Shown one piece after another: positions 8,818 through 21,703 of a DNA stretch of 22,190 nt. The stretch covers positions 1 to 22,190 of the forward strand of contig JAIFKL010000306.1 in NCBI GenBank assembly GCA_020049595.1, in the 5' to 3' direction. Position 1 is the first letter of the stretch; each line of letters opens with the position of its first letter. A program made the translations under genes and the position numbers. Source of the stretch: Desulfobacteraceae bacterium (GTDB taxonomy: Bacteria; Desulfobacterota; Desulfobacteria; Desulfobacterales; JAIFKL01). Below the pieces are notes generated by a model. The model saw nothing but the letters and a program-made list of their open reading frames with translations. It was not told the origin of the DNA and made no database searches.

Positions 8818-9015
8818 TTATTCCTCAATTTCCTCAATTTCGGCTTTGACAGGCACTTTCTTGTCGGAGGCCAGCAATAAAAATAAACCGATGATGGGGC
8901 CCAGCAGCAGCGAGCCGAAAAAATAGCCCCAAAATCCCATTTTCCTGTTGATCCCCATGAGTCCGATAACCAGACTCGCCACTGCCCATGCTATCGTTAT
9001 GATTGTCGGTGACAT
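8818..9015 (-). CDS. Small two-TM membrane protein, possibly PLDc_N-type (cardiolipin-synthase N-terminal-like) domain
   Basis: 65 aa with two hydrophobic helices. GSLLLGPIIGLFLLLASDKK resembles the P-x-x-G-x-x-x-Y/F-L-L-F-G-R/K motif of PLDc_N small membrane proteins. Acidic C-tail EIEEIEE. Weak SD. Confidence 0.4.
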   Translation of the reverse strand: MSPTIITIAWAVASLVIGLMGINRKMGFWGYFFGSLLLGPIIGLFLLLASDKKVPVKAEIEEIEE

Positions 9016-9355: not shown

Positions 9356-11602
9356 TCAGATGCGCTGACTGATATGACAGATATATATCTGCAAGGTGCT
9401 GACGCTTAAAATAATTGCAAAATTAATAAATTGTCCTGCACAGATCATCACCTTTTCAATTTTGTCTTTCTCTTTTTTTCTGTGCGAAGCATAACTCAGC
9501 AAAATGATAAAAACAGAAATTCCCGCCAATATAAAGACTGCCAGATGAGCATATTCAAGGGCTGACATATATGCTATCGGCAGGTCTGCAAAAAGCTTGA
9601 GATGAAAAACCGTATTTGCCGTCAATACGGCTGCCATCACAGACAGCGAAATGCCGAGCCGGTCTGCCGGCATAAGATACAGGATGCCGAAAATAATCAT
9701 CACCATGACGATGACCGGAAGAAAAGTTTTGAAGACAAACACAACGCCTTTCCTCTCAATCGGAATTGCCGCAGTAAAGCGGGAATAGCTGATGAGATGA
9801 TGCTTGTCAAAAAACTGGGGATTGCCGAGGGTGGAAACCTTTTCCACCGTATCCTGATAGAAATCCAGTTCGCCGAGCTGCCAGTCATCCGCATCTTTGA
9901 GCTTTGTTTTCTCAAGCATATTCTTTGCCTGCGGAAGCCCGAGCGTATCGGCAACATAAATCAACTGCTCTTTTTTCATTTCAATGTGCCGGAATCTTAT
10001 CTTCAACGTATGGCGGTCAAAAGGATAGGCGTGAAAATCAAAATCATTTTTGAAATCCGCTTTGATACGGTAAGCCCGAAACACAATACCCTTTTCGTCT
10101 GTTCCTTTGATAAAAGGCTGGCCCAGTTCAACCGGACTTACGGCGTTGAGAAATTCGATCTGAGTTTCATCAAAATCGCCTTTATAGCGGAACCAGAGAT
10201 AAAAATCTGCCGTATAACTTGAATGTATAGTATTCAGCTTGCTTATTTCATTCATATAGATTCCGGCATACACCACACGGGTCTGAGTCATCAGTTTTCC
10301 GTCGCTCAGTATGATGTCGCCTTCCAATGCCTTTCTGAACACATCCTCAACCTGCTCCCCTTCGGGAACAGGCTGATACTGAACAAAGTCGGGAAAGAGT
10401 GTCTGTTTTTCATAGAATCCGATGAAGGGCGGCCGGGAGACATTGCCTTTTGCATTAAAATAAATACGCCCGCTGACGCCTCTGATCGCATTTTCATAGT
10501 TGTAAAAACTTTTCAACGCCTCCCTGATTTTCCTCCGGTCGCTGCGTATATGCCCTTTTCCCTGTATGTCAGCTTTCTTGACAGCTTCCACCGCGACGTG
10601 CATCGCATCATAATAGCAGCCGGCTATCCATGAGGGTTCTTCTCTGTATTTTTTGATGAAAGACTGTCTGAAAAAATAGGCTTCTTTATCGGCAACATCT
10701 GTCAGAAGCGGTGATATCGCGAGAATGCCGTCGGAATAATATCCGGGATTCGACTGTTCTTTCGGATATTTTTTCAATGCCTCAATAAAAAAGCCTGTTG
10801 AAAGCGAATCCGGACCGATAGCAGGGTATTTTTTTCCCATGTCTCTTAAAAGCCGAATGGTTTCTGCCGCTTCAGGAAAGTGCATTGCCAGAAAAAGTAT
10901 TCCCGGATCGCCGGCGCTGTCTATTGACTCGGCAATCTTTTTTAAAACCGTATCAGGCTTTTGAGCGGAAGAATCGAATCCCCATTTTCCTTTAATATCA
11001 ATCCCCAGCTTTTTTGCCATTATTTCAAAATATTCGGCAAGAGAAGAGCCGTAACTGTCTTTATCAGATATGATCGTGGCAGATGTTGACTTCAAGGCTT
11101 TGCGAATATAATTTGCGATAAAATTGACTTGCGAAATATTGCCGGGAATAATTCTGAAATACCATTCATTATCAGAAGTAATCGCTTCCGCGCTGGCAGA
11201 CGCGGTCATCGCGCATATTTCATTCTGCTTATATATCTCTCCGGCAGCAATACAGGCACTGCTGTAATCATGTCCGAGTACCAGCAGCGCTTTTTTTGGG
11301 GAAGCAATTTCCGTAGCAACCTTCTTCGCAGTATGTTCATTGCTTTTATCATCAAAAACAAGCAGTTCTATCTTTTTCCCTGCCGGTTCGCCGCCCCTTT
11401 CGCGGAGGTGTTCCAGATACAGTTCCGCCCCTTTTAGCATTGCTTTTCCTCCTGCTTCTTCCGCACCGCTCATGGGACCCGCAAGGGCAATATAGATGAC
11501 TTCTTTTTTTAGCGGCGATAAAGGATGAAAGCGCAGGAAAGCGCCTGCTGCCCCCCCGATCATCAGCAGCAGAAAGATGATAACAATCAGTATTTTTTTC
11601 AT
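9356..11602 (-). CDS. Periplasmic-binding-protein (LivK-like PBP1) domain fused to prokaryotic pentameric ligand-gated ion channel (Pro-loop receptor), paralog A
   Basis: Signal peptide MKKILIVIIFLLLMIGGAAGA. The N-terminal ~400 aa are LivK/ANF-receptor-type PBP1 (IYIALAGPMSGAEEAGG…LLVLGHDYSSAC…). The C-terminal extracellular domain carries the Cys-less Cys-loop signature AYPFDRHTLKI (compare GLIC RYPFDSQTLHI). M1 has the conserved Pro (FKTFLPVIVMV). M2 ends in the LP-x-x-x-Y motif (FADLPIAYMSALEY, compare GLIC TNLPKTPYMTY). M3 and M4 follow a short intracellular loop. The track start at 11608 is TTG; the ATG at 11602 gives a clean signal peptide. Confidence 0.8.
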   Translation of the reverse strand: MKKILIVIIFLLLMIGGAAGAFLRFHPLSPLKKEVIYIALAGPMSGAEEAGGKAMLKGAELYLEHLRERGGEPAGKKIELLVFDDKSNEHTAKKVATEIASPKKALLVLGHDYSSACIAAGEIYKQNEICAMTASASAEAITSDNEWYFRIIPGNISQVNFIANYIRKALKSTSATIISDKDSYGSSLAEYFEIMAKKLGIDIKGKWGFDSSAQKPDTVLKKIAESIDSAGDPGILFLAMHFPEAAETIRLLRDMGKKYPAIGPDSLSTGFFIEALKKYPKEQSNPGYYSDGILAISPLLTDVADKEAYFFRQSFIKKYREEPSWIAGCYYDAMHVAVEAVKKADIQGKGHIRSDRRKIREALKSFYNYENAIRGVSGRIYFNAKGNVSRPPFIGFYEKQTLFPDFVQYQPVPEGEQVEDVFRKALEGDIILSDGKLMTQTRVVYAGIYMNEISKLNTIHSSYTADFYLWFRYKGDFDETQIEFLNAVSPVELGQPFIKGTDEKGIVFRAYRIKADFKNDFDFHAYPFDRHTLKIRFRHIEMKKEQLIYVADTLGLPQAKNMLEKTKLKDADDWQLGELDFYQDTVEKVSTLGNPQFFDKHHLISYSRFTAAIPIERKGVVFVFKTFLPVIVMVMIIFGILYLMPADRLGISLSVMAAVLTANTVFHLKLFADLPIAYMSALEYAHLAVFILAGISVFIILLSYASHRKKEKDKIEKVMICAGQFINFAIILSVSTLQIYICHISQRI

Positions 11603-11617
11603 AAACAAATGCCAGCC

Positions 11618-13855
11618 CTACTTCAGATAACAGGTATAGGCAATTAAAACAGCAATAACTGAAACCGCCGGAGGATAAAGAATCTTTGCCGCACGGCTGA
11701 GATATTTTATCTTGTTCCGAGCGTCTTTTTTCAGCAAATGTCTGACGCAGAGGAAAAAGAACAAAGACATTGCCGCCAATGCGTAAAATGAGAAAAAGGC
11801 ATATTCAATAAATAAAAAATACCCTGCCGAAGAAAAATAGTGATAAATCCTGAGATGATACAGTCCGCATGTCAGCGCCGCCGCTCCCAGCATCATCAGA
11901 CGGATGCCGAAGCGATCATGCGGCAGAAAATAGGTGAAATACAGTATCATAACCGCAATGAAAATCGGGAGAAAATTTTTGAGAATAAAGGCAAAACCGG
12001 TTCTTTCTCCCTGAAAGACCGCATTAAACTGTGAGTAATCAATATCTGTCTCATGGTAATTATCCGGAAATTTTCCGACAACAGTATTTTTCGTCACCGC
12101 GTCCTGATAAAAAAGAATACCGGTGATATTCCAGCTTTCAAGCATTCTTTTGGTCTGGTTTTCGATCTCATTTTTTATGGTTTCAAGCTGAGGCATGCCC
12201 AGTCTGTCAGGAACGAAGACCAGCCTGTTTCTCGGAATCTCTGTATTGCGGAGGCTGATTCTGATGGTCTGCTGTCCGAAGGGATATTTGTGAAAATCAA
12301 AAGCGACTTTGAAAGTCCCCTTTACCCGATAGGCTCTGACAGCGCTGCTGTCTGTTTTTGTTTCCATGATGGGACGGCTCAGGGCAACAGGCTTTACCGC
12401 GTTTGTAAACTCAATCAGACTTTCATCAAACTCTCCTTCAAACCGGAACCAGATATAAAAATCTATGGCGCAGGTTGAATTTTTTATATCGGAATTGCTG
12501 ATTTCATTAATATCAATGCCGGTATAAACAATCCTGAACTTCTCCATTTCTTTTTCATCAACCGTAATAAGGTCCTCTGCATGAGACGATGAAAGCGCGT
12601 GCTGCTCTGCTTCTGTTTCAGATACGAACTGATACTGGTAAAATGCCGGAAGGAACAGGCGTTTTTTATAGACGCCCATGGCCGGCGCCACGCTGACATC
12701 GCCGTGCGTGTCGAAGTACATGTTGCCGCATATCCCCGTGATTCCGGTTTCCGGGGAGTTCATTCTCGCCAATGCTTCTCTGAGCAGTTTCCGGCTTTCC
12801 CGTATGCTTATGACACCCTGAATTTCAGCCCTTTCAACCGCCTCGGCAGCAACCTGCATCGCGTCATAGTATGCGGCAGATACCCATGACGGTTCCTCTT
12901 TATACCTGTCGGCGAATTTTTTTCTGAATAAGTAAGCTTTTTCATTTGAAATATCGAGAATAAAGGGGGACACGGCATAAATATCGTCCGAATGGTATCC
13001 GGGAATGATCTGTTCTCCGGGATATCTTTTAAGATTCTCAAGAAATGTTTCCGCGGCAAGCGCATCCGAACCGACAATCGTATAACTTGTTCCGGGATAT
13101 TTCAATGACGCGACTATTTTTGCCGCTTCGGCACCGTGCATTGCCAGAAAAATCACCCCCGTGTCGTCTGTAGCTCTTAATTCGTCGGCAATCCGCTTTA
13201 CTTCAATGTCCGAATTTTTTTCATCCGTGTCAATTCCCCATTTTCCCTTAACCGTGATGCCCAATATCCCGGCAGATTTTTCAAATGCTTTGACAAGCGA
13301 TAACCCGTAAGAATCTTCGTCAAAAACAATGCTGACTTTATCTTTGTTCAGACTGCGGAAAATATAATTTGCGATAAAGCCGCCTTCAAAACGGTTCGCG
13401 GGGATGGTTCTGAAATACCAGTCATTGCCTGCAGTAATAAGGTCTGCTGTTGCAGAAGCGGTGATAACGGGCATACCTGTTTTTTTATAAACGTCTCCTG
13501 CCACAACAGAGGTTTCACTGGAATAATGACCCAGTACCAGCAGGACATTTTCATTTGCGACAATCTCAGACGCGGCTTTCATTGCCATGCGTTTATCGTC
13601 TCTGTCATCAAAGACAAGCAGTTCTATATTTCTGTCTTTGTGCTGTTTATTCCAGTCATCAGCGCAGAGACGGATCCCCTGAAGCATCCGCTGTCCCTGT
13701 AATTTCGCTTCTCCGCTGACAGGCAGCGCCACAGCAATCATAATCTTTTCTTTTTTGACAAAAGGAGAAAGCTGTGAATACTGGAGAATAAGCAGCACAG
13801 CCAGGGCGATCAGCGCCGATGCCGTTGCAGATATGAGCAGCCGTTTTCTTTTCAT
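11618..13855 (-). CDS. LivK-like PBP1 domain fused to pentameric ligand-gated ion channel, divergent paralog B
   Basis: Signal peptide MKRKRLLISATASALIALAVLLILQ from the ATG at 13855. The same PBP1-plus-channel architecture as A, with KYPFGQQTIRISL Pro-loop motif and M1 Pro (FLPIFIAVMILYF). M2 aligns to A but ends HLRIYHYF in place of HLKLFADLP, so the conserved LP is lost. The 9-nt gap to the downstream gene implies co-transcription. Confidence 0.75.
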   Translation of the reverse strand: MKRKRLLISATASALIALAVLLILQYSQLSPFVKKEKIMIAVALPVSGEAKLQGQRMLQGIRLCADDWNKQHKDRNIELLVFDDRDDKRMAMKAASEIVANENVLLVLGHYSSETSVVAGDVYKKTGMPVITASATADLITAGNDWYFRTIPANRFEGGFIANYIFRSLNKDKVSIVFDEDSYGLSLVKAFEKSAGILGITVKGKWGIDTDEKNSDIEVKRIADELRATDDTGVIFLAMHGAEAAKIVASLKYPGTSYTIVGSDALAAETFLENLKRYPGEQIIPGYHSDDIYAVSPFILDISNEKAYLFRKKFADRYKEEPSWVSAAYYDAMQVAAEAVERAEIQGVISIRESRKLLREALARMNSPETGITGICGNMYFDTHGDVSVAPAMGVYKKRLFLPAFYQYQFVSETEAEQHALSSSHAEDLITVDEKEMEKFRIVYTGIDINEISNSDIKNSTCAIDFYIWFRFEGEFDESLIEFTNAVKPVALSRPIMETKTDSSAVRAYRVKGTFKVAFDFHKYPFGQQTIRISLRNTEIPRNRLVFVPDRLGMPQLETIKNEIENQTKRMLESWNITGILFYQDAVTKNTVVGKFPDNYHETDIDYSQFNAVFQGERTGFAFILKNFLPIFIAVMILYFTYFLPHDRFGIRLMMLGAAALTCGLYHLRIYHYFSSAGYFLFIEYAFFSFYALAAMSLFFFLCVRHLLKKDARNKIKYLSRAAKILYPPAVSVIAVLIAYTCYLK

Positions 13856-13870
13856 TATGATACGCAAAGA

Positions 13871-13934
13871 AATTGAGAATTGAGAATTATTTCTCAATTC
13901 TCAATTCTCAATTTCTAATTACTAATTACTAATC
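13871..13934. repeat. Heptamer-repeat palindrome (AATTGAG x2 / CTCAATT x3) followed by TAATTAC x2, filling the intergenic gap between the lipoprotein and channel B genes
   Basis: AATTGAGAATTGAGAATT at 13871-13888 pairs with AATTCTCAATTCTCAATT. The TAATTAC repeats overlap the stop of the upstream gene (13929-13931). On the minus-strand mRNA the hairpin is followed by UUUCUUUG and then the ATG at 13855. Confidence 0.8.
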
Positions 13935-16661
13935 TTTAAGATACCAGTTTCGGATATGCTGACCCCCGATTGCCATCTGATACCAGCCTTTGACTCTCGG
14001 TTTTACCAGACAGTGCGCCGCCTCAAAATAAAGCGGAAAAATCACCGCCTGCTCTTCGCACAGAATCTGTTCCGCACGTTTGTAAATCTTTTTTCTCTCT
14101 TCGGGATTCGTGGTTTCCAATGCTTTTGTCATCAGATCGGCAAACTCCGCATTATCCCAGCCCGTAAAATTGTCCGGGTTGCGGGGGTTGAACAGTTCAT
14201 TGAGAATATTGTTCGCATCCGGATAATCCACAGACCAGCCGAACCTGCATATATGGTGCGAAGACGTATCCGGCTGATACAGATATTTCACATAATTATC
14301 CCATGTTTCTTCCCTGAGAATGAGATGAATGCTGAGATAATACTCCAACGATGCCTGAACCGCACGGGCAATCTCCGAATGGGTTTTGGAGGCATTGTAA
14401 AGGAGTTCTATCTCGGGAAAACCTTTGCCGTCCGGATAACCGGCTTCTGCCAGCCATTTTTTCGCCTGCAAAGGATCAAAACTGATGCCCACCCCGTTTT
14501 TCGGATCAACGGAACCCAGAATCGGCGGTGGCGTATAAGTCGTTGCCGGTGACTCGCCGCTTTTGGTGACCAGATCAATTAAAAACTGACGGTCAACCGC
14601 GGCGCAGATCGCCTTCCGAACCAGCGGATTGTCCATCGGCGGACGTTTGGTATTAAAGCCGTAGGAATATGTCGCAAACATCGGCGCTCTTGAATATTCT
14701 TTGCCGAGCTGGGGATTTGATTTAATATCATTCAGTTGTGCAAAAGGCAGCCGCAGATAGTTTCCGCCGGTTATGTCTAATTCGCTGTTTTCATACATGA
14801 CCAGACCCACCGCGCTTTCAGGTATGATGTAAAACCGGACTTCAGGGATGGAAACTTTTGACGCTTCGTAGTAATCCGGATTCTTCCTCAATATCATCAG
14901 CATCCCTTTGTCCCAGTACGTGAGTTTGTAAGAACCGTTTGTCTGAATGTTTTCAGGTTCTGTCCAGCGGTCCCCGTATTCTTCAACAGTCTCACGGGGC
15001 AGGGGTCTGTAAATCGCAAGCCCTGCCATTCCCGGAAAATACGCGGCAGGGTGTTCAAGCTCAAATTCCACGGTAAAATCATCGGGCGCATGTACGCCTA
15101 TCTGCGAGACATCCTTAATATTTCCGGCATTGATCTCTTTGGCGTTTTTCAGAATATAGAGCATGGAAACAGAGGGGCATTTGGTTTCCGGTCTGATATT
15201 CCGCTGAACTGCCCAGACAATATCACTCGCCGTAACCGGCTTGCCGCTTGTCCATTTGGCATCCTCGCGCAGTTTGAAGCGGTAGGTCTTTCCGTCATCG
15301 CTGACGGTCCAGCTCTGAGCCAGTTCGGGAACCGCTTCATAAGTTTTCGGATCAAAATCGGTCAGTCCCAGAAATATCTGCTCAACCGCTTCAACAGAGG
15401 AAATGTCCTGTGAAAGTCCCGGATCAACGGTCGTGATAAGCCCTTCCACGGGAAGCCGCAATGTGATTTCTTCCACCACATACAAAGGGCTGATTTCCTC
15501 TTTTGATTCATAATCCAACAGCTCGAATTTCCCGTTGCGAAGCTCTTTGAAAAAAATTTCTTTTCCGGCAATATCGCCGTTCAGCTTGAAAGAATAGGAG
15601 CCGGTAGCCCCTTTCCAGTTTTCTAAGAACCTCAGCGCGGATCCCATGGCAACGGGAACCGCGGAACCGCTCTTTTCAATGCTGTATGCCAGCAGTTGAA
15701 CCGCATCATATCCCTGAGCCGCCCATGTATCCGGCACCACGCCGAATTTTTTCCGAAACTTTTTGACAAAATCCCGTGTGCTTTTTGAAGGCATATCAGG
15801 ATTGAAAACCGAAGGAACGATCACATGCTCCGCGCTTTTCCCCGCCACCGTAAAAAGTTCCGGCGAGTCAAGGCTGTGTCCGCCGATAAAGGGAACGCTG
15901 ATGCCCATGCCTCGCGCCTGCTTGATCAGTTCTCCGGCAAAGGGAAGCAGTCCGCCGATAAAAACCGCATCAAATTTGTAATTTTTGGCAAGTTCCGATG
16001 TGATGCTCCTGAAATCTTTCTGCCATTTGAAATAAGAACGGACAGCGACAATCGTAATTCCCAGCTTGTCGGCTTCTTCGCTGAAAATATCGGCAAGGCG
16101 CTGGCCCGCGGTCTCTCTTTCATAAAAGACCGCCATTTTTCTGAATCCTTTCTGATAAGCCAGCGTTGCCGCCTTTTTTCCGGTTTCATCATCGGAGAGC
16201 ATATTTCTGAATGTATAGGTGCCGCCGTATTGTGTAAAGTTCGGGTCTGTCGCGCCCGTGGAAATAAAAAGAATACCCGTGTTTTCATAGATGATGGACA
16301 CCGGCACCGCAACGCCTGAGTAGCGATGCCCCACTACCGCAACCACATCGGGATGCGCTGCTAATTTCCTTGCAACAACCTGGGCAATATTGAGATATCT
16401 TTTGTCGTCGTAAAACAGGGGATGGATTTTTCTTCCCAGAGGTCCCCCCTGTTCGTTGATTTCCGACACTGCCAGATTGACGCCTTCCGTAAACAGGCTG
16501 GGATCAAAAGAAGAATCCACCACGCCGATACAAATATCCGCTTTTGACTCCCCGGCCCGTTTGGCTCTTTCTTCAGGCGATAGGGTGTCATTGCCGCAGG
16601 AAAAAACAGACAGCAGCGCTATGAGCAGAATAATGTGTTTACCTGTTTGCATCCGGCGCAT
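13929..16661 (-). CDS. Dual substrate-binding lipoprotein: N-terminal LivK-like PBP1 domain fused to C-terminal SBP family 5 (OppA/DppA/NikA-like) domain
   Basis: AGGAAA sits 6 nt upstream of the ATG. Lipobox LLSVFSCGND. Residues ~40-380 are PBP1 (ICIGVVDSS…VAVVGHRYSGVAVPVS…). Residues ~395-910 are SBP_bac_5 (VEQIFLGLTDFDPKTYEAVPELAQSWTVSDDGKTYRFKLREDAKWTSGKPVTASDIVWA…). The start overlaps the upstream SPFH gene's stop by 23 nt. Confidence 0.75.
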   Translation of the reverse strand: MRRMQTGKHIILLIALLSVFSCGNDTLSPEERAKRAGESKADICIGVVDSSFDPSLFTEGVNLAVSEINEQGGPLGRKIHPLFYDDKRYLNIAQVVARKLAAHPDVVAVVGHRYSGVAVPVSIIYENTGILFISTGATDPNFTQYGGTYTFRNMLSDDETGKKAATLAYQKGFRKMAVFYERETAGQRLADIFSEEADKLGITIVAVRSYFKWQKDFRSITSELAKNYKFDAVFIGGLLPFAGELIKQARGMGISVPFIGGHSLDSPELFTVAGKSAEHVIVPSVFNPDMPSKSTRDFVKKFRKKFGVVPDTWAAQGYDAVQLLAYSIEKSGSAVPVAMGSALRFLENWKGATGSYSFKLNGDIAGKEIFFKELRNGKFELLDYESKEEISPLYVVEEITLRLPVEGLITTVDPGLSQDISSVEAVEQIFLGLTDFDPKTYEAVPELAQSWTVSDDGKTYRFKLREDAKWTSGKPVTASDIVWAVQRNIRPETKCPSVSMLYILKNAKEINAGNIKDVSQIGVHAPDDFTVEFELEHPAAYFPGMAGLAIYRPLPRETVEEYGDRWTEPENIQTNGSYKLTYWDKGMLMILRKNPDYYEASKVSIPEVRFYIIPESAVGLVMYENSELDITGGNYLRLPFAQLNDIKSNPQLGKEYSRAPMFATYSYGFNTKRPPMDNPLVRKAICAAVDRQFLIDLVTKSGESPATTYTPPPILGSVDPKNGVGISFDPLQAKKWLAEAGYPDGKGFPEIELLYNASKTHSEIARAVQASLEYYLSIHLILREETWDNYVKYLYQPDTSSHHICRFGWSVDYPDANNILNELFNPRNPDNFTGWDNAEFADLMTKALETTNPEERKKIYKRAEQILCEEQAVIFPLYFEAAHCLVKPRVKGWYQMAIGGQHIRNWYLKD

Positions 16662-17934
16662 TCGTATTTCCTGTCAGTTCGGAGCGGTCTTTTTCAGTGA
16701 CCCTTCCGGTTCTGTCTTTTTCGGTTACCATTCCGGATTTATTTTTGATTTCAGATCGCTCGTCTTTTTGAGCCTGTTCTGTTTCACGGGGAACCGCTTC
16801 CCCGGCGTCACGTATAAATTCATATTTACGAGTTGTTCCGGTTTCACCGCCTGTTTTGCCGGTTTCCGCTGCTCCGCCCGTTTCTGTTTTTTCGGACGCC
16901 TCTGTTTTTCCGGCAGGCTCGGTTGTAATGCCTGTTTCTGTCTTTTCAGATGCTTCTGTTTTTCCGGCAGGCTCGGTTTTTCCGCCTGTTTCCGTGCCGG
17001 GGGCGGCTTTCTCGGATGATTCAGATTTTTCAAGGGCTTGGGTTTTTATCATCGGCTCTTCATTCAGTAAGATACTCCCTATGATCGGCAAGCCTCTTTT
17101 ACCCGCGCCGACAACCACAACTTTTGAATTGTCCGAATTGGCAAGCTGCAATGTTGCCTGAATGCCCATCCACTGCAATATATTTTCCGTAAGCGAGGCG
17201 TTTACAATATTGTTATAATCTTTTAATCCCCCGGCTTCGATACGCTTTCTTTCCGCCTCTCTTTTTTCCTTCTCTATCTTAAACAGATGCGCTTCCGCCA
17301 TGTGTTTCTGTTCGACTTTATAGCGTATGGAATCTGCAACGCTGTCAGGCAGTTCGACTTCTTTGATAATCACATCGTCAACTTTGATAAATCTTCGGGA
17401 AATCTGCTCAATCGCCTCGTTGATTGCCTGGTCTATCAGCCCTGTTTTTGTGGTGTAAATCTCCTCGGCATCCAACTGTCCCACAATCAGACGCAATACA
17501 GATTCGATTTCCGGGATCACAATTTCATTCACATAATCGGGACCCACTTTCTGGTGAAGCACGCCGAGCAGGTTATATTCGGGGTAATAACGGACAGATA
17601 TGGATAACTGAACCTTCAATCCGTTTTTCGTCAGCACATGAAACTTGTGTCCTGCCTGCTGTACCCTCATATTATAAACATAAAGTCTGTCCCAGGGATA
17701 AAGCAGATAAAGCCCCTCGGCAAAGACCTTATCCGTGATTGTTCCGCCGCCGAAGCGCTTGTATAAAACGCCCGCTTCCCCTGACTCAACCGTATAGACA
17801 ATATTGTTAAACAGATAGGCAATAAAGAGCAGTTGAATCAGAATAAGCACTATCAGCACGGAGACATTGCCCTGAAATTTTTCTAAAATGCCGTTATATA
17901 TATCTTTAATTTTATTAAATATTCTTTTAAACAT
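16639..17934 (-). CDS. SPFH/band-7 (stomatin/prohibitin/HflK-C family) membrane protein with coiled-coil and low-complexity repeat tail
   Basis: N-terminal TM (VSVLIVLILIQLLFIAYLF), then an SPFH domain (VESGEAGVLYKRFGGGTITDKVFAEGLYLLYPWDRLYVYNMRVQQAGHKFHVLTKNGLKVQLSISVRYYP…), a coiled-coil (KIEKEKREAERKRIEAGG) and a 17-aa tandem repeat tail (PAGKTEASEKTETG…). The track start is TTG at 17964; the ATG at 17934 is the likely start. Confidence 0.75.
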   Translation of the reverse strand: MFKRIFNKIKDIYNGILEKFQGNVSVLIVLILIQLLFIAYLFNNIVYTVESGEAGVLYKRFGGGTITDKVFAEGLYLLYPWDRLYVYNMRVQQAGHKFHVLTKNGLKVQLSISVRYYPEYNLLGVLHQKVGPDYVNEIVIPEIESVLRLIVGQLDAEEIYTTKTGLIDQAINEAIEQISRRFIKVDDVIIKEVELPDSVADSIRYKVEQKHMAEAHLFKIEKEKREAERKRIEAGGLKDYNNIVNASLTENILQWMGIQATLQLANSDNSKVVVVGAGKRGLPIIGSILLNEEPMIKTQALEKSESSEKAAPGTETGGKTEPAGKTEASEKTETGITTEPAGKTEASEKTETGGAAETGKTGGETGTTRKYEFIRDAGEAVPRETEQAQKDERSEIKNKSGMVTEKDRTGRVTEKDRSELTGNTNAPDANR

Positions 17935-17968
17935 TTCTTCTGATTTCCGGTTTAGCCCACCCAATAGC

Positions 17969-18068: not shown

Positions 18069-19703
18069 TTAAACCTGACTGCTGTACTCGACAAATTTGC
18101 CGTATTCCATCTTCAATACCCTGTCTGCAAAATCAAAATATCGGTCGTCATGGCTGACCGCGATAATTGTTTTTCCCTGCGCTCTCAGATCGTTTAATAA
18201 AACTTCATAAAAATATTTTCTGAAAATCGGATCCTGATCCGCGGCCCATTCGTCAAACACGCAAATCGGGCGTTCCTCAAGCAAAGCGGCAATCATTGCA
18301 AGTCGTTTCCGCTGTCCTGTGGAAAGCTTGATATTGGTAAATTCGCCGTCAATGACCTCTGTTTTCTTTTCCAATTCCATCAATTTGATAAGACTTCGGA
18401 TTCTATCGGCATCTGTTTCTCTCAAGCCGTAGAGCCTGTCAAACACATGAAAATCGCTGAAGATAATAGAAAACATCTCCCGATATGACTGATAAGATGT
18501 CTTGTCAATCGTCAAATCATCCACTCGGAGGGTGCCGGCATCGGGATAATACAGTCCGGTTAAAAGCTTGAGCAAAGTTGATTTTCCGCTGCCGTTGCCG
18601 CCGACGATAAAGATGATTTCTCCCTGCCGGGCCCTCATATTGACAGGCCCCACCGTAAATAAAGGCGTTCCGTAAGAATCGGTATAGGAAAAAGAAAGGT
18701 TCTCAAGACGGATTTCGTTAAAGGTTTCTATCTTTCTGACATGAGGCTTTCCCCCGACTTTAAACGGCGCTGCGGCTTTGTCCAATCTTGCTTCCAGTTC
18801 ATAGAGCGTTTCCACTGCCATATTTGCTCTGGAAAAAAGCGGTATCGCACCCACCATCAGATTCACCGGACCGATGATAAACAGAATGGCGGCAGTCAGC
18901 CGGATGACCAATGAAGGATTTGCCGGGTCCAATCTGGGCAGAACAAAAACAATAACAGCGAGTAATGTGTAAAAAAACACTTGGGAGAACATCAGTTCCG
19001 TGACAAATCTGAATCCGGTTTTGACCTTCAATTCCTCGGTTTCATCTGCTATTTTTGTCAGAAATCCGAAAAGATCATCGCTTTTTTTTCTGTTCATTTT
19101 GAGTTCTTTGAAGCCGTCAAGGGTCTGATTCAGCATATCAAAGAAATCGCTTTCTTTTCTTGCGGTCTCACGGATTTCTATGTCAATTTTATCCTGCTGC
19201 AACATATAATTGACGGTCGCCGCGCCGATGGCAATAACGGTGATGAAAAAAGCCAATTTCGATAAGACAGCAATATAGAACATGCAGAAAAACAGTACAA
19301 TGCCGGACTGGGCCGCGTTGATAATCAGCACGGCGGATTCGGAAATAAGATTGGTGTTATAAGTGATCCGAGTATAAATTTCCGCTTTTCCGGTGTTTTC
19401 CAGAAAAATAAGTTCCGAACTTCTGATTTTATCGGCAATCCTTACCCGTATGCGTTTGATGATGGCCTCGGCAAGAGCGGTTGCTCTTTTCAAAGCAAAT
19501 CGTTTTCCGATAATCACAATGGCGAAAGTAATCACAAACAGAAGAAAGAATCTGAAATTCAGGCTGTCGTAAGAAGCAGTGGCAGCCGCAGTGGTGATAA
19601 TGCCCAGCAGAAGTCCCTGCGCGATGCCCGAGACAATTGCCATAAACATCACCGATGTGCCGGAAACGGTTGATTCGTTTTTATATAGTTTCAGCAGATT
19701 CAT
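18069..19703 (-). CDS. ABC transporter, fused permease/ATPase, cyclic-peptide exporter family (SyrD/YojI-like)
   Basis: Six N-terminal TM helices, then an NBD with Walker A GGNGSGKST, ABC signature LSTGQRKRL, Walker B ICVFDEW and H-loop AVSHD. Size and arrangement (TMD-NBD, 544 aa) fit the cyclic-peptide transporter subfamily. Confidence 0.7.
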   Translation of the reverse strand: MNLLKLYKNESTVSGTSVMFMAIVSGIAQGLLLGIITTAAATASYDSLNFRFFLLFVITFAIVIIGKRFALKRATALAEAIIKRIRVRIADKIRSSELIFLENTGKAEIYTRITYNTNLISESAVLIINAAQSGIVLFFCMFYIAVLSKLAFFITVIAIGAATVNYMLQQDKIDIEIRETARKESDFFDMLNQTLDGFKELKMNRKKSDDLFGFLTKIADETEELKVKTGFRFVTELMFSQVFFYTLLAVIVFVLPRLDPANPSLVIRLTAAILFIIGPVNLMVGAIPLFSRANMAVETLYELEARLDKAAAPFKVGGKPHVRKIETFNEIRLENLSFSYTDSYGTPLFTVGPVNMRARQGEIIFIVGGNGSGKSTLLKLLTGLYYPDAGTLRVDDLTIDKTSYQSYREMFSIIFSDFHVFDRLYGLRETDADRIRSLIKLMELEKKTEVIDGEFTNIKLSTGQRKRLAMIAALLEERPICVFDEWAADQDPIFRKYFYEVLLNDLRAQGKTIIAVSHDDRYFDFADRVLKMEYGKFVEYSSQV

Positions 19704-19840: not shown

Positions 19841-21703
19841 TTACGATACGCGTATCCGAAATCGCTCATCCCAGATATAGGTGATGAATCCCTGACCCGG
19901 ATTGTCAGAAATCTCTTCCGGCTCTGCCGTTCTTTTTTCTCCCGAAGAAAGACCGCCGCCCAGAATCGTGATCGCATCAAAGATCACAATGTCTTTTATC
20001 TGTCCGTCCTCAGACCTTAATGTCCTGTTGGTGCAGGCTGCGATGGGGATACGGGTATTCGGGTCATAAACGATGCCGACGTCATAGCCCAGAAAGTTAC
20101 CGGATGCAATCAGCATGTTGTTCGAGAGATTTTTGTAGAGATTGGGACCGCACTGAGTTGCAGGATTCATCGGGAAATAAAGTTCCGGGTCAACCGTTGT
20201 GTCATTTACAAAATCATAGCCTTTGCCGAAGAGCTTGCCTTCGCCGATGAGTTTGATCCATTTGCACAGATTTTCAGGCGAGGAAATCATACACGCCGAT
20301 GAACTGGCAGCAGAGGGTTCACGAGTCGAAGCATCTTCCAAGCCCTTGTCTTTACTTCCGTACATCGCGCCGGTCACATCATACAGGTCAATGTAGCCGT
20401 GAGCATAATTTCCCTCTGTCGGATTCTGAGTATATGGACCTTCAAGGTTTGATTCTCCTGTTTCAGTAACAATGGTGTCGCTGAGTCCGTATTTCTTGAT
20501 AAAACGGTTCCGTATCTCATCTTCCCATTTATTGCCGGTCACTTCCTTTATGAGCATTCCCAGCAGAACATAATTCGTATTCGAGTAATGCCAGCCCGCT
20601 CCGGGAGGAAAGGTCGGACCTTCTTCAACAGCAAGTTCAATGAGTTCGAGCGGTTCCCATTTGTCCTGACGGAGAAAGAGAAAATCAAAAAACCAGTCAG
20701 AAGGCACTTCATAAAAATTGTACAGCCCGCTGGAATGATTCACCACCTGACGGATATTGATGTTTTCCCCGTTGGGAATCAGTCCGGGGAACCACTGTTC
20801 AACAGAATCGTCCAGCGTGATTTTTCCCTCTTCGACAAGCTGCATGACGGCCATTGCCACAAATGTTTTGGTCAGACTGGCGACCCGGAACCGGGTATTT
20901 GTGGTCATCTGTGTTTTTGTTTCCAAGTTGGAATAACCGCTGGTCAGTTTCCATGTGAAAGCACCGTCCGAATAGGTCACACCGTCCATTACGCCGTTTA
21001 AGCAGTCGTCTCCCTCACAGGGAACTTCAGCAACCAGGGCCACGCCGGGGACCTCGTTTTCGGAAACAGCTTTATCCAAAATGTCCTGCAATTTTGTCCG
21101 AATAAAGTGATTCTGCGCCCTGACTGCTGAAACCATATCCCGCTCTTTGCCCAGCAAATCAGCGATGACAGGCTCTGTTTTCGTCTCAAATTCGCTCGAA
21201 CTTAATGAAAAGTCAACTTCTGTACTGTATTTCTTTGATTTTTCTCTCACGGATTCTGACAGAAGAATGCCGTTATCCGGATTCGCGTCGTCATCCAATG
21301 TCTGCAAAAAGCGCAGAATATTTGTCACCTGCGGGTCTCTGTCGCTTTCCGCTGCGGAAACCAAATCTCTGGGCGTCAGCGTCAGAACAGCCGGAGCAAG
21401 TTCCGCTTTGTTTACATCCAGTGTCAGCACGGTTGTCGCAGACCCGAGTACAATGTTTCCAAGCTTGAAGGTAACATTTTTGCCTTTTTCATAGAAGAAA
21501 GTGCCGTCCGCGTCGGTTACGCCGGTAAGCCCCCCGGAAATATAGCTCAGACCCTGAACCGCACTGTCTATAAAACGTCCTTCTCTTTCGGACACATAGT
21601 CCTCATGTTCGCCGCTGCACCCGAAAGCAGACATCATCACTACCAGCATCGCTGCAAAAAGATAAGGTGTTTTATCAAACACGATATTTCGTTTTTTCCT
21701 CAT
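19841..21703 (-). CDS. Beta-lactamase-fold serine hydrolase (PBP/esterase family) lipoprotein with ~210-aa N-terminal extension of unknown function
   Basis: AAGGAG sits 7 nt upstream of the ATG. Lipobox MSAFGCSG. The S-x-x-K active-site motif FRVASLTKTF and the YSN-type motif HYSNTNY are both present. The C-terminal part is Gly/Asn-rich. Confidence 0.7.
   Translation of the reverse strand: MRKKRNIVFDKTPYLFAAMLVVMMSAFGCSGEHEDYVSEREGRFIDSAVQGLSYISGGLTGVTDADGTFFYEKGKNVTFKLGNIVLGSATTVLTLDVNKAELAPAVLTLTPRDLVSAAESDRDPQVTNILRFLQTLDDDANPDNGILLSESVREKSKKYSTEVDFSLSSSEFETKTEPVIADLLGKERDMVSAVRAQNHFIRTKLQDILDKAVSENEVPGVALVAEVPCEGDDCLNGVMDGVTYSDGAFTWKLTSGYSNLETKTQMTTNTRFRVASLTKTFVAMAVMQLVEEGKITLDDSVEQWFPGLIPNGENINIRQVVNHSSGLYNFYEVPSDWFFDFLFLRQDKWEPLELIELAVEEGPTFPPGAGWHYSNTNYVLLGMLIKEVTGNKWEDEIRNRFIKKYGLSDTIVTETGESNLEGPYTQNPTEGNYAHGYIDLYDVTGAMYGSKDKGLEDASTREPSAASSSACMISSPENLCKWIKLIGEGKLFGKGYDFVNDTTVDPELYFPMNPATQCGPNLYKNLSNNMLIASGNFLGYDVGIVYDPNTRIPIAACTNRTLRSEDGQIKDIVIFDAITILGGGLSSGEKRTAEPEEISDNPGQGFITYIWDERFRIRVS

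Follow-up and report, generated by a model that had tools for sequence, protein, structure and literature searches.

Two adjacent genes on the minus strand of a 22,190-nt stretch of DNA from a Desulfobacteraceae bacterium (contig JAIFKL010000306.1 of assembly GCA_020049595.1, positions 1 to 22,190; hereafter the window) encode fusions of a LivJ-like type-I periplasmic binding protein (PBP) domain with a subunit of a pLGIC (an ion channel that is pentameric and ligand-gated). The upstream gene, B, and the downstream gene, A, form an old tandem pair of distinct subunit types. As judged from the aligned sequences, the stable differences that define the two types are a loop-C motif and the aspartate of the Pro-loop, not the proline of the M2-M3 loop. 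Our best reading, to which we give about an even chance, is that A and B co-assemble as a heteropentamer. We favour it because residues that are otherwise invariant seem to be relaxed only when a partner subunit is present, and because ancestral features seem to be retained reciprocally between the two types.

We identify A and B as PBP-pLGIC fusions because of the results of Pfam, family-profile, AlphaFold2 and Foldseek analyses. B consists of a signal or anchor sequence, a type-I PBP domain, a pLGIC extracellular domain (ECD) and four transmembrane helices, M1 to M4 (Table 1). Its PBP domain matched Pfam PF13458 (Peripla_BP_6) at 4e-32 and PF01094 (ANF_receptor) at 7e-25, and the N-terminal domain of A matched Peripla_BP_6/ANF_receptor at E = 6e-35. 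The nearest relatives of the B domain in the PDB were branched-chain amino-acid binding proteins (E = 5.5e-21; LivJ, 2e-15), with the ligand-binding domains of metabotropic glutamate receptors matching more remotely (about 1e-7). For the C-terminal 306 residues of B, Pfam returned nothing above threshold when Neur_chan_LBD and Neur_chan_memb were sought, and A scored 14.9 bits against the Neur_chan models, below the cut-off of 26. The PBP-pLGIC subfamily is too divergent for these models. Since Pfam was below threshold, the channel half was identified by searching a family profile against the PDB and by a fold search. On its own, A matched ELIC at about 1e-7 and an ELIC/GABA-A chimera at 3.6e-9, and B gave a marginal match (4.5e-3) to solved pLGICs. 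The profile of 31 family members matched the ELIC/GABA-A chimera at 5.5e-19, ELIC at 6e-14, DeCLIC at 7e-14, sTeLIC at 2e-13 and GLIC at about 1e-12, over a region spanning the Pro-loop through M4. The AlphaFold2 model of the C-terminal half of B (mean predicted local distance difference test score, pLDDT, 86) has a ten-strand beta-sandwich and four helices. When this model was compared with the PDB by Foldseek, the best 50 matches were all pLGIC chains (E about 1e-17, TM scores 0.65-0.74), among them GABA-A, sTeLIC and GLIC chimeras. The C-terminal half of B is thus predicted by the model to fold as a complete pLGIC subunit. The common architecture of A and B that an earlier sequence-only reading of this DNA had described is borne out, both proteins having a PBP domain and a pLGIC module by Pfam, profile and fold search. 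Pentameric, ligand-gated conduction by A and B is predicted from family membership.

A and B are 40% identical over 729 aa (BLASTP), their PBP domains being about 40% identical, and the stop codon of B is separated by a 15-nt gap from the ATG of A on the same strand. The two had been called adjacent and co-transcribed; adjacency, co-orientation and the short gap are evident, and co-transcription is what they suggest. We surveyed one genome per GTDB species, with 356 loci, and analysed 80 fetched loci, 9 earlier ones and the window. Among these 89 loci and the window were 26 tandem pairs, nearly all from Desulfobacterales, and about 30 single genes with approximately 3-10 kb of flank on each side, mostly from Thiotrichales, filamentous cyanobacteria and Chloroflexota. 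B orthologues were found in L001 (80% identical to B), L006 (75%), L010 (70%), L004 (57%; with L005 one lineage) and L002 (51%), and in all six lineages, the window included, B is followed by A in the same order. The layout recurs in the sister clade L008/L014. In 42 cases out of the 52, a paired subunit is nearest not to its own partner but to the subunit in the same position elsewhere, and therefore A and B are old, distinct subunit types. The A and B subtrees are congruent in topology, and some 20 older pairs retain a fixed upstream/downstream order. The sequences thus indicate that the pair is old and has been inherited and re-duplicated as a unit with its order kept. Two claims drawn from the window alone, that there are two divergent subunit types and that orthologous operons might always carry both, agree with this picture: same-position relatives, fixed order and type-specific sites speak for the types, and all six lineages carry both. 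A metagenome scan for further B-clade orthologues returned only three distant relatives.

The first of the type-defining differences lies in the beta9-beta10 hairpin, which carries a family motif S-T-L-G-x-P-x-F-F and aligns with residues 175-188 of ELIC, which we take to be loop C. Among the old downstream subunits 18 of 20 have its S-[ST]-L-G core, as do 23 of 30 single genes with good flanks. In the old upstream subunits the motif is deleted or replaced without exception (20/20), B having TVVGKFPDNYH. Of the ancestral features, loop C and the 22' Leu are retained in downstream subunits; the beta1 Asp and the Gln that follows the Pro-loop are retained upstream and lost downstream. Asn at position 11' of M2 occurs in 90% of downstream subunits, compared with 5% of upstream subunits and 8% of singles.

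The other difference is in the Pro-loop (superfamily pattern [F/Y]-P-x-D) of B (KYPFGQQTIRISL), which the sequence-only reading had taken to be shared with A. The invariant proline is indeed kept, but the conserved aspartate is a glycine, so that the tip reads YPFG at 12275-12286 where A has YPFD. In the superfamily the Pro-loop Pro is conserved at 100% (Table 1 of PMC4795631), the Asp, which is salt-bridged to the pre-M1 Arg, at 93%, the pre-M1 Arg itself at 94% and the kink Pro of M1 at 77% (PMC4795631). Mutation of the Pro-loop Asp to Ala leaves both ELIC and GLIC non-activating (PMC4778918). In the B clade this Asp is replaced by Gly in five of the six lineages and by Ile in L002, whose B orthologue has lost the pre-M1 Arg too. 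B itself keeps the pre-M1 Arg (QGERTG), the M1 Pro (NFLPIF) and the Pro-loop Pro. Across the family, the Asp is kept in 60/60 unpaired members versus 34/52 paired subunits, and by parsimony it was altered in at least 8 separate events, all of them in paired subunits.

The M2-M3 proline behaves differently. The M2 helix of B ends HLRIYHYFSSAGYF, and its counterpart in A is HLKLFADLPIAYM; when the two are aligned, HLRIYHYF-SSAGYF in B stands against HLKLFADLP-IAYM in A. A serine of B (codon 11831-11833) lies opposite the proline of A in four independent alignments, namely BLASTP of A versus B, MAFFT of 122 homologues, hmmalign of 112 channel domains, and the family profile versus solved pLGICs. 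In the profile alignment the family Pro, at 23', falls on the 'SLP' of GABA-A alpha1 and the 'NLP' of GLIC. No offset LP was found in B, which has zero prolines between M2 and M3, and in the AlphaFold2 model M2 spans residues 210-234 and the loop 235-243, with Ser236 (C-terminal-fragment numbering) opening the M2-M3 loop. The statement that B has lost the LP motif is thus correct, also as regards an LP that is present but offset. The accompanying statement that aromatic residues replace the proline needs amending, in that the proline site is Ser and the aromatics, H-Y-F, are present in place of the preceding A-D-L.

Loss of this proline is not a feature of the B type. In the order window, L001, L006, L010, L004 and L002, position 23' is S, S, P, P, P, S in the B clade and P, P, P, P, T, T in the A clade, the Thr occurring in L004 and L002. 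All four combinations of A and B with or without the proline are found, L002 having it in neither subunit. The loss in B is a single CCG to TCG transition common to the window and L001 only, and the M2-M3 loop in the window has an extra TCT, a one-codon insertion relative to the orthologues. The proline loss in B is a recent, minor substitution. Among homologues generally, 23' Pro is present in 64 of 115, and when 112 channel domains are placed on a neighbour-joining tree, parsimony requires at least 19 state changes, with at least 6 upstream, 5 downstream and 8 in unpaired genes. The proline is found in 10/26 upstream, 21/26 downstream and 26/30 single subunits, so that loss is commoner upstream. 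We did not rely on this asymmetry between upstream (p1) and downstream (p2) subunits (Fisher p = 0.004), because it reflects mostly a few old events and the parsimony changes are similar across the groups. Four channels (L042, L060, L072 and L085) lack the proline and have no second copy within 4-10 kb. In the superfamily the M2-M3 loop Pro (GLIC P247) is conserved at 88% (PMC4795631). Activation is still robust in the mutants GLIC P246A/G and ELIC P254A/G, and the Tyr beside that proline is essential in GLIC/ELIC mutagenesis (PMC4778918); B keeps the Tyr. Thus, 23' Pro is evolutionarily labile in this family and is not a mark of the B type, and since the GLIC and ELIC mutants activate, its loss does not imply a non-gating subunit.

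The sequence-only reading had also singled out an Arg at the 0' position of M2 in B. The placement is right, the residue aligning with the 0' Arg of GABA-A alpha1 in the family profile, but it is the family consensus (76/116 homologues) and no peculiarity of B. The 9' Leu is the usual hydrophobic-gate residue of these channels. Members of the A clade have 0' Ser and 9' Thr instead of the canonical Arg and Leu that B keeps. In the superfamily, 0' is cationic in 79% and 9' is Leu in 75% (PMC4795631). A, the canonical-looking paralogue, is unusual in the pore, with 0' Ser, 9' Thr and 11' Asn.

A comparison of nonsynonymous and synonymous substitution rates (dN/dS) between A and B had been proposed. 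Since synonymous sites are saturated at 40% amino-acid identity, and dS is undefined even for an orthologue at 52%, we used orthologues, and dN/dS was measured against L001, L006 and L010 (dS 0.4-0.7). The overall values for B were 0.20-0.27, those against these three orthologues being 0.23-0.27. By region, the PBP domain had 0.21-0.26, the ECD 0.22-0.31, the transmembrane domain (TMD) 0.23-0.27 and the M2-M3 region 0.17-0.36. Values for A were similar. In the same species pairs dN of the M2-M3 region of B was 3-7 times that of A, still constrained. The orthologue comparison thus shows purifying selection, and B is an intact gene, not a pseudogene.

If A and B do co-assemble, A would supply the principal face of the ligand site and an intact ECD-TMD coupling network, with B in a complementary or structural role and contributing the canonical residues of the pore. 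The task of the fused periplasmic binding domains would be to sense an amino-acid-like ligand or to deliver it. More tentatively, the Desulfobacterales pairs may be the first bacterial obligate heteropentameric pLGICs, with a convergent alpha/non-alpha split and with control by the fused clamshell domains and by a lipoprotein of the same operon that combines type-I PBP and SBP_bac_5 domains (PBP1+SBP5). Loop C and the salt bridge needed for coupling would then lie in A, and B would be complementary, with degenerate coupling residues.

PBP-pLGIC fusions as such are known. The architecture was described bioinformatically by Tasneem, Iyer, Jakobsson and Aravind (Genome Biol 2004/2005; PMC549065), and A and B resemble it in having a type-I PBP, a pLGIC ligand-binding domain and four transmembrane helices. 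Unlike the single genes of that study, A and B represent old, fixed-order, diverged tandem pairs in a larger conserved cluster. A literature search of limited scope found no experimental characterisation of such fusions. B resembles ELIC, GLIC, sTeLIC and DeCLIC in its fold, Pro-loop Pro, pre-M1 Arg, M1 Pro and M2-M3 Tyr, but those channels are homopentamers with the Pro-loop Asp and the M2-M3 Pro, both of which are missing in B. DeCLIC has an extra N-terminal domain that is not a PBP (PMC12664993). As an analogy only, animal heteromers of the nicotinic and GABA-A type also have two paralogous subunit types, one with a conserved loop C and the other degenerate, and the role of B may be likened to that of the non-alpha subunits of nicotinic receptors. 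Unlike in these animal heteromers, the A/B duplication is independent and bacterial, and co-assembly of A and B is what we infer. Ionotropic and metabotropic glutamate receptors likewise have a LivJ-like clamshell attached to a membrane channel or receptor, but the pLGIC module is unrelated to their tetrameric P-loop channel or 7-transmembrane receptor. A limited literature search turned up nothing relevant on heteromeric bacterial pLGICs, which is not proof of their absence, and within the same limits we did not find the tandem two-type arrangement, the loop-C asymmetry or the pairing-dependent loss of the Pro-loop Asp described.

The main alternative, which we regard as possible though a lesser prospect, is that A and B form separate homopentamers, regulated together in one operon and responding to different ligands through their diverged PBP domains and ECDs. 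The interface residues of B would then reflect another solution to coupling, for example gating through the fused PBP domain and not the orthosteric site. Every characterised bacterial pLGIC is, to our knowledge, a homopentamer. Tasneem et al. found single genes in alpha-proteobacteria, with one copy in most genomes, and predicted homopentamers (PMC549065). The alternative is also in keeping with PBP domains that are only about 40% identical, with purifying selection on all domains of B, with the existence of proline-less channels that have no second copy nearby, and with the retention in B of the pre-M1 Arg, Pro-loop Pro, M1 Pro, M2-M3 Tyr, 0' Arg and 9' Leu. It is harder to reconcile with the loss of the Pro-loop Asp in paired channels only, mutation of that residue abolishing activation of homomeric ELIC and GLIC (PMC4778918), with the absence from all 20 old upstream subunits of the loop-C motif that singles keep, and with duplication and inheritance of the pair as a unit in fixed order. 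Several further points weigh against co-assembly. The case for it is built from patterns among sequences, and the conserved pairing would be accounted for just as well by two homopentamers that differ in ligand. The loop-C argument presumes that the orthosteric site is used in PBP-fused channels. In animal heteromers the accessory subunits retain the Pro-loop Asp as well as the M2-M3 Pro, and complementation of these residues has no precedent. Pairs in which both subunits have lost the acidic Pro-loop residue number 0 versus about 1 expected, too few to discriminate. The distance between A and B ranges across loci from a 4-nt overlap to about 390 nt, and therefore tight translational coupling is not general. 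The trees are neighbour-joining trees without bootstrap support, and the Fisher tests ignore shared ancestry.

The sequence-only reading points to a version in which loss of the LP motif uncouples the ECD of B from its pore, so that B would be a non-gating, modulatory subunit with LP loss as the signature of its class. B does lack the proline, upstream subunits lack it more often, and the raised dN in the M2-M3 region of B would fit such a role. We nevertheless consider this unlikely, since three of the five B orthologues keep the proline and two of the five A orthologues lack it, with both subunits lacking it in L002, since the minimum numbers of changes are alike in the three groups (6, 5 and 8), and since GLIC and ELIC still activate when this proline is mutated to Ala or Gly (PMC4778918). 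Its broader suggestion of a heteromeric or modulatory subunit is plausible on different grounds, namely the lost loop-C motif and the Asp-to-Gly change in the Pro-loop. It is very improbable that B is a functionless duplicate decaying into a pseudogene, even with two of the seven most conserved superfamily residues lost, a one-codon insertion in the M2-M3 loop and a Candidatus Magnetomorum orthologue without M4. The reading frame is intact from the ATG at 13855 to the TAG stop at 11618-11620 and yields a confident AlphaFold2 model, each domain has a dN/dS of 0.2-0.3 when measured against three orthologues at dS 0.4-0.7, and the gene is kept in six lineages and in some 20 older pairs.

Table 1. 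Features of genes B and A and of the neighbouring genes in the window.
Feature	Position	Strand	Remarks
Gene B, upstream (p1-type) subunit	11618..13855	-	Open reading frame with ATG start; 745 aa; identical to P0001
B, N-terminal LivJ/LivK-like (HAAT, type I PBP/ANF_receptor) ligand-binding domain	12758..13744	-	Pfam and PDB matches
B, pLGIC extracellular beta-sandwich domain	11999..12538	-	AlphaFold2 strands, fragment residues 2-179; profile match to ELIC, GLIC, GABA-A
B, Pro-loop tip YPFG	12275..12286	-	Superfamily Asp replaced by Gly
B, beta9-beta10 hairpin (loop C) TVVGKFPDNYH	12059..12091	-	Coordinates derived from fragment residues 150-160
B, M2 pore helix with 0' Arg and 9' Leu	11837..11911	-	AlphaFold2; register from alignment to GABA-A alpha1 M2
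B, M2-M3 loop FSSAGYFLF	11810..11836	-	Ser codon 11831-11833 at 23'; Tyr kept
B, transmembrane domain M1-M4	11621..11998	-	AlphaFold2 helices 182-202, 210-234, 244-270, 274-305
Gene A, downstream (p2-type) subunit	9356..11602	-	YPFD, pre-M1 Arg, LP and loop-C STLGNPQFF kept; 0' Ser, 9' Thr, 11' Asn
Small membrane protein, 65 aa, downstream of A	8818..9015	-	80-92% identical reading frames in L001, L002, L004/L005, L006, L010
Lipoprotein, 910 aa, type-I PBP + SBP_bac_5 (peptide-binding type) fusion	13929..16661	-	Pfam; directly upstream of B
SPFH/Band 7 protein	16639..17964	-	Pfam 2.8e-24; position kept in L001, L002, L004, L008, L010 and others
ABC protein	18069-19703	-	In the co-oriented run of genes
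Beta-lactamase-fold lipoprotein	19841-21703	-	In the co-oriented run of genes

The pair lies in a cluster whose order is conserved in Desulfobacterales: the SPFH protein, the PBP1+SBP5 lipoprotein, B, A and the small membrane protein. The 910-aa lipoprotein is encoded upstream of most Desulfobacterales pairs and of many single-copy channels in Thiotrichales and others, being found by the channel in L008, L012-L016, L020, L030, L035, L038, L041-L043, L050, L053, L058, L060, L073, L080, L083 and L085, often with an SPFH/Band 7 gene just before it. In it the channel family has a conserved partner module. The predicted 65-aa membrane protein, which begins MSPTIITIAWAVASLVIGLMGINRKMGFWGYFFGSLLLGPIIG and is encoded about 340 nt downstream of A, has weaker copies near other pairs and may be a further component of the system.

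Between the 910-aa lipoprotein gene and B, at 13868-13916, GAGAATT repeats form an AT-rich hairpin, perfect over 22 bp, with a predicted RNA folding energy of -30.6 kcal/mol (z = -7.5 versus shuffles); a U-rich stretch comes after it. Possible roles of the hairpin are those of an attenuator, a partial terminator or an RNA-stability element that fixes how much lipoprotein is made relative to the channel subunits. A TTG start for B at 13897, given in the list of open reading frames, was rejected; it lies inside this hairpin, and the ATG at 13855 agrees with the N-termini of the orthologues and with P0001. At the 3' end of A (9356-9750, minus strand), dS in the TMD is 0.15 against L001 and 0.28 against L006, compared with 0.44-0.54 in the rest of the gene, and the last 35 residues are identical in the window and L001. 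The low dS could reflect recombination between lineages or an overlapping constraint at the nucleotide level.

The Candidatus Magnetomorum orthologue of B (L004 6931-9036 and L005 6274-8379) has 701 aa and ends just after M3, without M4; the M4-less gene is probably real, because two independent assemblies agree. Some members of the family carry extra C-terminal modules after the channel, of the SBP_bac_1 type, cyclic-nucleotide-binding, or MS_channel plus cNMP-binding domains (P0065, P0074, P0095 and P0119, of about 1150-1210 aa, with P0075 and P0116; loci L019, L025, L031, L047, L057, L061, L081 and L082). Judged by the titles of the locus records, the family occurs chiefly in bacteria that are large, filamentous or multicellular, including Desulfonema, Candidatus Magnetomorum, cable bacteria (Electrothrix), Thiomargarita, Thioploca, Beggiatoa, Marithrix, Moorena, Okeania, Trichodesmium, Dapis, Anaerolineae and Caldilinea; Desulfonema magnum has at least 3 pairs. 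This distribution may point to a part in signalling, whether inside the cells of a filament or from one cell to another.

The chief structural models for neurotransmitter receptors are pLGICs of bacteria, and the known ones are all homomers. The natural variation described here indicates that this family can do without the 'conserved' M2-M3 proline, in agreement with the mutagenesis of GLIC and ELIC. In contrast to the proline, the Pro-loop Asp has been lost solely where there is a second type of subunit. If A and B do co-assemble, the bacterial pLGIC that they form, with its two subunits, would be a tractable model of heteromeric assembly, stoichiometry and asymmetric gating, and also of the control that a LIVBP-like clamshell exerts over a pentameric channel.

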